NCBI GenBank assembly: GCA_963765205.1
Contig: CAVXVB010000002.1
Location: 198,038-262,037 of the forward strand
Origin: an uncultured Verrucomicrobiae bacterium
GTDB lineage: Bacteria > Verrucomicrobiota > Verrucomicrobiia > Opitutales > JABDGR01
Length of the DNA stretch: 64,000 nucleotides
Reading direction: 5' to 3'
Both the position numbers and the translations under genes were made by a program. The notes under the pieces were generated by a model. The model saw nothing but the letters and a program-made list of their open reading frames with translations. It had not been told where the DNA came from and did no database searches. Shown here piece by piece: positions 39,672 through 51,614 of the stretch (position 1 is the first letter of the stretch; the number at the start of each line of letters is the position of its first letter).

Positions 39672-39800
39672 AACGCTCAACTTTTAACGTTTAACGCTCA
39701 ACGCTCAAGTTTAACGGCAACAAGGATTTTCGACCCATTATCCCACTGGACGGGTTTTCTTAATTGAGCGTTAAACGTTAAGTGTTAAACGTTGAGCGTT
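39672..39800. repeat. Inverted pair of 5-unit heptamer arrays (AACGCTC/AACGTTT type) around a short loop
   Basis: Left AACGCTC AACTTTT AACGTTT AACGCTC AACGCTC (39672-39706); right GAGCGTT AAACGTT AAGTGTT AAACGTT GAGCGTT (39766-39800). Confidence 0.9.
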
Positions 39801-43920: not shown

Positions 43921-43955
43921 TTACTTCTTAATTCATAATTCTTAATTTTTACTTC
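43921..43955 (+). repeat. Orphan 5-unit heptamer array just before argC
   Basis: TTACTTC TTAATTC ATAATTC TTAATTT TTACTTC, then CC and the argC ATG. Confidence 0.8.
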
Positions 43956-48633: not shown

Positions 48634-49563
48634 ATGAAACATTTTCTCCAGGAGACCGACATTCCTGCTGACGAACTCGACGGGCTGTTCAGCCACGCCG
48701 CCCGGCTCAAGCAACAACGCGGGCGCTTTGGGGCGGACGCGCTGCGCGGGCAGTCGTGGGGCCTGTTGTTTTTCAAAAAAAGCACGCGCACCCGCGTGTC
48801 CTTCCATGTGGGCGTCGCCGAATTGGGCGGCACGCCGATCACGCTCAACGCGGATGATTTGCAAATTTCGCGCGGTGAGACGGTGGCCGACACCGCGCGG
48901 GTGCTGTCGCGCTACCTGCATGGGTTGGTCATCCGCTGCTTCGACCACCAGTTGCTCGAGGAATTTGCCCGCGCCGGGACCATTCCCATCATCAACGCGC
49001 TCTCCGATTTTCTCCATCCCTGCCAGATTTACTCTGACGTGTTCACACTCGCCGAACGCTGGAGCGAAGGCGGCGACCTCCTCGGCGCGCTCGCGGGGCG
49101 CAAGGTTGTGTTCTTCGGCGACACGGCGTGCAACGTCGCGAACTCCTGGCTGCTGGGCGGCCATCATTTCGACTTGGAAGTCGTGCTCTGCGGGCCGCCG
49201 GGCTTCGAGCCGGGCCTCGAAATCAAGGCGCTCATCAAAAACTCCGGCGGCCATTTTACCTTCACCAGCAATCCCCGGGAAGCGGCGCGGGGCGCGGATG
49301 TGTTATACACCGACGTGTGGGTCTCGATGGGCAAGGAGGCCGAGGAATCCGGCCGATTGTCGGCGCTCAAGCCCTACGCCGTGACGCGGGAATTGCTCGA
49401 CCTCGCCAAACCCGGCGCGCTCTTCATGCACTGCCTGCCCGCGCATCCCGGCCTCGAAGTCACGCAGGAAGTCCTCGACGACCCGCGCAGCATCATTTTC
49501 GACCAGGCGGAAAACCGCTTACATATGCAAAAAGCCATTTTGGAGTGGATTGTGAAGGCATAA
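48634..49563 (+). CDS. argF: Ornithine carbamoyltransferase
   Basis: KKSTRTR, INAL..HPCQ, TDVWVSMG, MHCLPA, DQAENR; start at MKHFL. Confidence 0.95.
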   Translation: MKHFLQETDIPADELDGLFSHAARLKQQRGRFGADALRGQSWGLLFFKKSTRTRVSFHVGVAELGGTPITLNADDLQISRGETVADTARVLSRYLHGLVIRCFDHQLLEEFARAGTIPIINALSDFLHPCQIYSDVFTLAERWSEGGDLLGALAGRKVVFFGDTACNVANSWLLGGHHFDLEVVLCGPPGFEPGLEIKALIKNSGGHFTFTSNPREAARGADVLYTDVWVSMGKEAEESGRLSALKPYAVTRELLDLAKPGALFMHCLPAHPGLEVTQEVLDDPRSIIFDQAENRLHMQKAILEWIVKA

Positions 49564-50030
49564 TGGAAAATGGAAGATGGAAAATGGAAAAATCAAACCA
49601 TCTCTCTCATCTCGTGAAAGAAGAACGCGGCCCTACCGCACGTTCCTATGTCTCCTTTGAGGATATGCCTGTCTGGCAGGATGCCCGGCGGTTGGTTCAG
49701 CGCGTTTACGAGCTGACCAAGCAGGCCGCCTTCGTGCGCGACCGCAGCTTTAGCGACCAGATGCGGCGGGCGGCGCTTTCAGTGATGAATAACATCGCCG
49801 AGGGTTACGAGCGAGGTTCCGAAATCGAATTGGCTCGTTATCTCTAAATTGCCAAGGGTTCCTGCGGAGAGGTGCGCTCCATGTTATACGCCGCCCAAGA
49901 CCTCAAGATGACGACCCCGGAGGCAACCACGGAAATTTATCCGTTATGCGTGGGCGTCTCGCGCCAACTCGCCGGTTTTATCCGTCATCTCGAAGCCAAG
50001 CGCGCAAAAACTTCTCGCGCCAACGGCTAA
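49563..50030 (+). pseudogene. Four-helix-bundle protein (23S-IVP/TIGR02436-like) with an in-frame TAA at 49845
   Basis: SFEDMPVWQ, DQMRRAALSVMNNIAEGYER, then YL*IAKGSCGEVRSMLY continues in frame to TAA at 50028-30. Confidence 0.88.
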
Positions 50031-50086
50031 TTTTGTCCATGTTCGCTGTCTTCCGATTTTTCTATCTTCCATTTTCCATCTTCCAT
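49563..50086. mobile_element. Putative intervening element: four-helix-bundle gene flanked by inverted heptamer arrays
   Basis: Left ATGGAAA ATGGAAG ATGGAAA ATGGAAA (49563-90); right TTTCTAT CTTCCAT TTTCCAT CTTCCAT (50059-86). Fills the argF-argG gap almost exactly. Mobility is inferred, not shown. Confidence 0.6.
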
Positions 50087-50088
50087 TC

Positions 50089-51308
<1,220 letters not shown>

Positions 51309-51327
<19 letters not shown>

Positions 51328-51380
51328 GAGGGGGGGAGGGTAGGAGTCAGGAGACAGGAGTCAGAAATCAGGAGACAGAA
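51309..51380 (+). repeat. Purine-rich heptamer array overlapping the argG stop
   Basis: GGTAGGA GGCAGAA AGTAGGA ... GTCAGGA GACAGGA GTCAGAA ATCAGGA GACAGAA. Confidence 0.85.
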
Positions 51381-51433
51381 GACTCTTGCCCAGAACGTAA
51401 ACTTTCTACACGATACCCTCCCTTCGCTGGTTT

Positions 51434-51524
51434 CAACCTGCAACCTGCAACTTGCAACTTGCAAGGAACAACTCGCACCTTGCAATCTGCACCTTGTAAC
51501 CAACAACTTGCAACCTGCAACTCA
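51434..51524 (+). repeat. 13-unit CAACYTG-type heptamer array ending just before tRNA-Leu
   Basis: CAACCTG x2, CAACTTG x2, CAAGGAA, CAACTCG, CACCTTG, CAATCTG, CACCTTG, TAACCAA, CAACTTG, CAACCTG, CAACTCA in unbroken 7-nt phase. Confidence 0.9.
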
Positions 51525-51529
51525 TTTTC

Positions 51530-51614
51530 GGCCCGATGGCGGAATTGGCAGACGCGCTGGACTCAAAATCCAGTATCCTCTAAAGATGTGTCGGTTCGAC
51601 CCCGACTCGGGCCA
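51530..51614 (+). tRNA. tRNA-Leu (CAA)
   Basis: Acceptor GGCCCGA/TCGGGCC, D-arm GCGGAATTGGCAGACGC, anticodon arm CTGGA-CTCAAAA-TCCAG, long variable arm, GTTCG T-loop; CCA not encoded. Confidence 0.95.

Follow-up and report, generated by a model that had tools for sequence, protein, structure and literature searches.

We propose that the four-helix-bundle gene standing between argF and argG in this uncultured Verrucomicrobiae bacterium is, together with the complementary heptamer arms that enclose it, an old resident of that junction and the 'home' locus of a family of ATGGAAR repeats dispersed through the genome, organised much as RAYT genes and their REPINs are and without a transposase. In this reading, which we hold at a probability of about one half, a ring of the protein would steer the writing of arms and RNase III would cut the stem that they form. 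The role of home locus is in our judgement likely, and its direction (that is, from home to satellites) is inferred from sequence comparison. Throughout, the window is the whole 64,000-nucleotide stretch that was analysed, G000 the genome that contains it and G001–G009 related genomes; L-numbers are extracted loci, and X1 is a Logan run.

Layout of the cassette

The cassette and its two host genes comprise the following features.

48634..49563, + strand: argF, ornithine carbamoyltransferase, the upstream host gene (NCBIfam, PRK00779, 373 bits, over the cut-off)
49562..49594, + strand: left arm, four ATGGAAR units and an A-rich inner end, starting within the argF stop
49563..50030, + strand: four-helix-bundle gene (TIGR02436/PF05635, S23p/Avd-like), a pseudogene in a 155-codon frame
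49845..49847, + strand: premature TAA at codon 95, open in the L108 and G008 orthologues
50055..50087, + strand: right arm, the reverse complement of the left arm and the entire proximal argG leader
50089..51327, + strand: argG, argininosuccinate synthase, the downstream host gene (NCBIfam, TIGR00032, 461 bits)

An array scan, profile matches and 1,000 shuffles agree with the preliminary description that the gene is enclosed by inverted heptamer arrays between argF and argG. The left array (49562–49591) holds 4.3 AATGGAA units and is complementary to the right array (50058–50087), the inverted-repeat score of the arms is 21 (maximum of 12 in the 1,000 shuffles), and a 29-mer of the left arm occurs exactly 11 times in G000. 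The arms had been said to pair over 21–28 bp in several registers, and we measured 21 nt at 100%, 32 nt at 84% and 33 nt at 88% complementarity, the last with a predicted duplex energy of −37.5 kcal/mol; the fold of the cassette RNA has a z score of −2.8. No RNA family other than tRNA was matched by Rfam between 48500 and 52000, and a consensus promoter scan of the cassette gave no internal promoter. The claim that the cassette has no transposase also stands, given that its gene matches only PF05635 in Pfam.

Two details of the junctions had to be adjusted. The right array, described as ending 2 nt before the argG ATG, ends at 50087, one base before the ATG at 50089, the figure of 2 nt depending on where the last unit is cut. 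The argF stop (TAA, 49561–49563) does overlap an ATG at 49563, as stated, but this TAATG overlap is not a conserved source of the start of the gene: the left arm of L108 has three units, with the TAATG-type ATG out of frame and the ATG of the innermost unit in frame. The latter corresponds to 49584 in the window, and this inner ATG is probably the conserved start. A frame of another gene in G000 (C9:223576–224142, − strand; MNGKWKMENGK...) also begins inside an ATGGAAR arm, so starts supplied by an arm are not special to the four-helix gene.

Long residence at the argF–argG junction

We compared 29 argG loci besides that of the window, from the 30 of 40 genomes with a match (window included). 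argF lies directly upstream in 17 and is not adjacent in 12. Only one of the 17 (G008) contains the four-helix gene, so that empty argF–argG alleles, the search for which had been proposed, make up the remaining 16. An intact orthologue with 75% identity and the same ATGGAAR unit occupies the same junction in L108, a metagenome contig; the G008 orthologue (48% identity) is flanked by arms of AARATTS units and its arm is non-coding. In G003 a remnant of the right arm survives in front of argG, and argF and argG are separated by other DNA; this gap (L101:2580–2960, L002) is disrupted by an IS-like gene together with a pair of small genes, and a 52-nt sequence is found at both contig ends.

A tree of 46 proteins of the family is made up largely of clades that each belong to a single junction, and the window, L108 and G008 copies fall into one clade (95/95; four rows, the fourth being a long-branch G003 copy). 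Copies at new junctions within a junction clade are few (G001 L078, G002 L079, G003 L097 and G001 L084). Because the tree clusters by junction with few copies at new sites, the cassette is, at the level of sequence comparison, an old resident of the argF–argG junction with losses and occasional moves, and the idea of a recent jumper is contradicted by this long residence.

The same data bear on two alternatives. One is a selfish cassette akin to the intervening sequences (IVSs) of 23S rRNA, in which gene and arms move as one into operon junctions, RNase III removes them from the mRNA, and pairs of arms without a gene are deletion remnants; the patchy occupancy and the copies at new junctions speak for such mobility, although movement appears rare, with most copies grouping by junction. 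The other is a dedicated argG switch, suggested earlier, in which translation of the left arm opens a stem hiding the argG leader. Folding gives the 20 nt upstream of the argG start a predicted unpaired probability of 0.16, which becomes 0.45 once a ribosome stands at the argF stop and 0.72 once the left arm is covered, but the peptide encoded by the arm has no run of Arg codons (one Arg in its first 20 codons). We consider a switch specific to argG very unlikely because the same arms stand at dozens of unrelated junctions, the TAATG frame is not conserved, the gene is broken and the allele is empty at 16 of the 17 other argF-adjacent loci.

A recently broken gene with a predicted four-helix fold

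With an X at the stop, the window gene scores 104.4 bits against TIGR02436 (cut-off of 24) and 108.1 bits against PF05635 (cut-off of 33.8), and the intact L108 protein has a TIGR02436/PF05635 family score of 97.6. The in-frame TAA at 49845–49847 recurs with zero differences in two Logan contigs of run X1; we rejected an assembly error on the basis of these identical letters, although X1 may be the source sample. As pN is 0.125 and pS 0.82 against the L108 orthologue, the sequences show purifying selection on the gene before the stop arose. The loss of the intact protein in the window copy is recent.

An AlphaFold model of the gene product (pLDDT of 84.7) has Xcc0516 (2GSC) as its best Foldseek match (E of 3e-5, rmsd of 1.4 for the predicted model), followed by BT0352 (2RLD) and, more weakly, Avd (4DWL and 8UB7). 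Inspection of the protein identified no catalytic motif. When four copies of the L108 protein were predicted together (pLDDT of 83–84), head-to-tail self-association reached 0.61 compared with 0.12 for the best control; repeat runs share at least 95% of their contacts, and 21 of 30 solved pairs but none of 23 single chains attained the mark. The predicted assembly comprises four copies, and the score probably reflects likeness to 2GSC.

Complementary arms accompany the protein family

The homologue set was reduced from 243 raw matches to 217 unique, near-full ones, 183 of which have 260-nt flanks (7 from the same genome, 50 from Opitutales, 57 from metagenomes and 69 from GTDB, the GTDB set being biased in that it was drawn with a single protein of one clade as query). 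The family also occurs in Bacteroides thetaiotaomicron. An inverted repeat between the flanks (score of at least 12) is present at 158 of the 183 homologues and at 6 of 265 ORFs taken as controls from those loci, bearing out the expected enrichment of complementary arrays; among cross-paired flanks 52 of 600 reach this score, and among same-strand comparisons 39 of 183 do. A period of 7 on both sides accompanies 84 homologues (6 of the 265 controls), a period of 8 is seen in 10 and a period of 9 in 18. Both arms are periodic in 138 of the 158; the median copy numbers are 3.7 and 3.9, and in 111 of these 138 the left unit differs from the right one by no more than one base.

As had been claimed, units differ between loci (81 different units), yet a family 'defined by architecture instead of sequence' is only half of the picture, given that the unit follows the protein clade. 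One clade keeps GTTCTTG-type arms across several phyla, a persistence that would suit the selfish cassette. At four loci of this clade (L202, L207, L227 and L257) the unit is flipped relative to the gene, which rules out a fixed arm polarity and, as far as sequences can indicate, suits a protein that would recognise a duplex and not one strand. A universal core of GA every 7 nt was also rejected, GA occurring in only 42 of 138 left-arm units. Separately, a four-helix clade comprising G000:C9:1139043–1139363 and its orthologues (L061–L063, L068 and L096) has period-8 arms in every genome examined.

Dispersed arrays match resident genes

G000 contains 314 period-7 arrays, whereas no other period between 4 and 12 exceeds 85 arrays. 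It has 97 inverted array pairs, 82 of them with 200 nt or less between the arms. It also encodes seven four-helix genes, two of which are broken; six have clear arms, and no two of these six share a unit. The exact unit of a resident gene recurs in 159 of the 314 arrays (null mean of 11, maximum of 17), 225 arrays lie within one base of such a unit (null of 84) and 89 lie farther away.

This match extends to related genomes. The ATGGAAR pattern has 88 matches in G000 and 0 in G008, whereas ATTSAAR has 0 in G000 and 55 in G008, so that the dispersed unit, judged from these sequences, switches together with the unit at the argF–argG junction. For the moxR junction, the G000 unit has 36 matches at home and 5 in G003, and the G003 unit 21 at home and 9 in G000. 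Across seven patterns and ten genomes with the family, at least 10 matches were counted in 12 of 13 cells with the cognate gene, compared with 6 of 57 cells without it, 35 of which are zero; matches overlap and include the 2–4 of the gene itself, the patterns were drawn from the arms of those same genes, the genomes are kin rather than independent samples, and metagenome-assembled genomes break at repeats. Some units are abundant where no cognate gene was found (ATGGAAR with 15 and ATTSAAR with 18 matches in G009, GGATGAR with 24 in G008, and ATGGAAR with 18 and GRAGGTR with 16 in G003), the cys-junction pattern of G008 has only 3 matches despite its cognate gene, and ATGGAAR is the largest array family in G000 although its gene is broken. 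Names of junction genes (atp, gyr, glt, cys, moxR, sufU/hisF and pyrH/frr) were read from translations by inspection.

Units from the same clade in different genomes differ by 1.85 (47 pairs) and units from different clades in the same genome by 3.48 (58 pairs), a difference reached in none of 5,000 permutations of 29 hand-labelled loci that are likewise kin and not independent. From the sequences, each paralogue has a unit of its own, and this unit goes with the clade of the protein. Gene-rich genome samples carry 14 arrays per 400 kb compared with 1 in gene-less samples, 11 of the 14 coming from one genome and two gene-rich genomes having none.

Arm pairs without a gene

Among the arms of at least three units in five families, four units are far more common (157 of 232) than three (54 of 232), and four-unit arms predominate in each family (53/70, 29/46, 21/32, 21/34 and 33/50). 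One to three in-phase bases are conserved past the fourth unit, giving five short in-phase cores over a conserved span of about 30–32 nt; four units and a partial fifth fit a pentamer. This regularity has to be weighed against neutral simple-sequence repeats, that is, arrays that arise when the polymerase slips and are kept uniform by template switching, with the gene as a tolerated passenger. Slippage has been proposed for bacterial heptamers (as cited in the available text of PMC4692102), a few arrays are very long, and units drift concertedly in both arms. However, the excess of four units, the association with one protein family (86% compared with 2% of controls), the dependence of the unit on protein clade and the reciprocal genome-wide switch all go against slippage as the explanation, and we regard it as disfavoured and improbable.

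The spacers of gene-less pairs have a non-periodic match elsewhere in only 4 of 74 cases, and outside arm sequence the 21 ATGGAAR spacers have no match to one another or to the interior of the gene. We therefore rejected gene-less pairs as deletion products or as MITE copies, which would share internal sequence, and because the spacers are unrelated, whole units are not simply copied. Identical arms are no proof of copying either, because only two letters are free per unit. Joints in X1 with only 19–39 letters between arms had been candidate excisions and proved to be gene-less elements of other loci, two of them matching C8 and C9 spacers. The spacer of one pair (near 138004 of G000:C8) holds another repeat, a palindromic one, that is matched 77 times in the genome.

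On the basis of crude gene calls made in this analysis, the 82 gene-less pairs occupy 48 co-directional, 10 divergent and 5 convergent gaps, with 19 unresolved or at an edge (background of 399, 97 and 93 gaps, respectively). The divergent share of resolved pairs (10 of 63) equals the background share, which speaks against strict targeting of mRNA alone within the limits of these calls. Arms start a median of 4 nt past a stop codon, and lie just before a start codon more often than after a stop (92 compared with 50; 17 unresolved).

For the IVS-type selfish cassette, this placement close behind stop codons is favourable, and so is a design shared with the Coxiella IVS (a 28-bp stem, three heptamers and a degenerate one, and RNase III cutting, according to the part of PMC4990558 available); the unrelated spacers and the pairs in divergent gaps, where one transcript need not span both arms, are not, and overall we find this alternative doubtful.

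Arms at the same junction vary between relatives. Between atpA and atpG they are of ATGGAAR in G000, of AATTAAG type in G001 (with the gene), G003 and G004, of ATTCAAA in G008 and absent in G007; between pyrH and frr they are of ATGGAAR in G000, of GGATGAR in G006 and G008, of AATTAAG type in G001 and G003 and absent in G004. This variation weighs on a third alternative, a host-beneficial post-transcriptional regulon in which a TRAP-like ring binds arms at many leaders and junctions and tunes processing or translation, the arms arising by slippage and strand switching and being kept by selection. The fixed arm length and the purifying selection on the gene would be expected of such a regulon, as would the excess of arms before start codons, which MacGregor reports also for TAACTGA (PMC4679880, in the part available), and Avd binds flipped-out RNA bases between its protomers (according to the available part of 10.1101/2023.10.23.563531). 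No function, however, is common to the target junctions, arm families differ or arms are missing between close relatives, two of the seven G000 genes are broken, and the family has no match in 96 of the 201 genomes from the order. We judge a regulon unlikely.

Within the window, three other loci had been credited with period-7 arms; only one is an inverted pair, the other two are not, and none encloses a gene. The pair (39672–39800) has AACGYTY-type heptamer arms and lies in a convergent gap. A single arm of the AATTAAG family (pyrimidine strand) at 43921–43955 precedes the argC start directly, past a hairpin that resembles a terminator and follows rpsI. Two non-complementary arrays, of AGGAGWC (51342–51383) and CAACYTG (51434–51522), stand between argG and a tRNA gene (51530–51614); the gap 3′ of argG also contains arms, of other families, in G003 and G008.

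Candidate enzymes

No match to the reverse transcriptase family PF00078 was found in G000 (92% complete). The five Y1_Tnp (PF01797) matches in this genome have palindromes of their own or no arms and none has heptamers, and we therefore rejected a RAYT as mobiliser. A gene for RNase III (rnc) is present. One Y1 transposase-like domain (G000:C9:1167743–1168000) lies in frame within a 1230-aa frame that by inspection resembles alanyl-tRNA synthetase. A frameshifted GxxExxY gene (G000:C8:182464–182733, − strand) is framed by inverted period-9 arms, with 45 arrays of that 9-mer in the genome, and is a second gene family with the home-plus-satellite design.

Relation to known systems

The 23S rRNA IVSs of Coxiella burnetii and Leptospira resemble the cassette: in the available text of PMC4990558, that of Coxiella has an S23p ORF, a terminal stem of about 28 bp, three heptamers and a degenerate fourth in its 5′ arm and cleavage by RNase III, and decay of the ORF is tolerated. 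This likeness in protein family and terminal stem had been recognised from the outset. The window cassette shares the long complementary termini but lies in a protein-coding operon, outside any rRNA gene, and differs in its dozens of gene-less pairs and its several paralogues with their own units, and cleavage of its stem is, by analogy, predicted. The part of PMC4990558 available does not link the heptamers to dispersed repeats.

REPINs are inverted pairs with diverse spacers, and their RAYT is single-copy and vertically inherited (PMC8049555); REPtrons and TIRtrons have also been described (PMC3733652), both sources being available in part. The window gene shares with RAYTs vertical inheritance with few relocations, flanks of its own repeat and dispersed intergenic inverted pairs that match this repeat and enclose highly diverse spacers. 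In contrast to RAYTs it encodes no HUH/Y1 transposase, its arms are tandem heptamers rather than palindromic, GTAG/CGTC-tagged REPs, and the Y1 genes of G000 have flanks other than heptamers. The locus is thus an IVS-type cassette outside rRNA, RAYT–REPIN-like in organisation and not a member of that system.

Cyanobacterial STRRs are bacterial heptamer arrays. Others are GGGAATC in Xanthomonas, mostly of four units, GGGGAYT in Nostoc (PMC4692102) and TAACTGA in Beggiatoaceae (PMC4679880); within the text available of these papers, arrays are, as here, intergenic, mostly of four units and often in inverted pairs or just before starts, and the words 'four helix' do not occur. In comparison, the unit families of this genome appear, from their sequences, tied to resident four-helix genes.

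Homology of PF05635 to Avd is described in the available part of PMC10053308, and the Avd pentamer contacts an RNA stem-loop with all five protomers (10.1101/2023.10.23.563531, also in part). Modelling gives the window protein the same fold as the Avd of diversity-generating retroelements (4DWL and 8UB7; TM to target of 0.86 for 4DWL), at 14–16% identity and, unlike in those elements, with arg genes as neighbours and no reverse transcriptase, template repeat or variable repeat beside it. Our literature search, with most subscription papers and supplements outside its scope, returned no paper that ties the TIGR02436/S23p family to dispersed heptamer arrays.

Proposed mechanism and implications

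Returning to the reading of the locus as an old resident and home of the ATGGAAR family, we envision the following steps. The protein would form a five-membered ring, like Xcc0516 and Avd, that recognises its own arm, with the four units and partial fifth presenting five in-phase cores, one per subunit. Such a ring may steer templated, probably DNA-level writing or rewriting of arms into intergenic gaps through host enzymes, to which we turn because neither a reverse transcriptase nor a Y1 transposase with heptamer flanks was found in G000 and because whole units are not duplicated. Once co-transcribed, the arms would pair as a stem of about 30 bp, which RNase III would cleave as it does the IVS of Coxiella; by this analogy, cutting of the mRNA stem is likely to be a side effect. 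A ribosome ending argF would partly open the stem, and the insert may thereby be tolerable.

More tentatively, and at less than even odds, TIGR02436 proteins in general could be the specificity factors of a transposase-free propagation of repeats, in which a five-fold ring reads the five cores of its own arm and directs the writing of four units. Heptamer arrays (STRR, GGGAATC and TAACTGA) would then be satellites of resident four-helix genes, and the 23S rRNA IVS a home cassette that landed in rRNA.

To these known systems the present locus adds the rule of one unit per paralogue, the reciprocal switch of unit at an orthologous junction and the fixed length of the arms. Although the window locus is a broken member, it has value as a natural experiment, with another unit at the G008 junction and an intact twin in L108. 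It links three puzzles, namely the orphan S23p/TIGR02436 family, the protein-coding intervening sequences of rRNA and the excess of heptamers in bacteria, and if a ring protein does select or write a programmable 7-base repeat, this would represent a new nucleic-acid recognition code and a new route by which short repeats spread.
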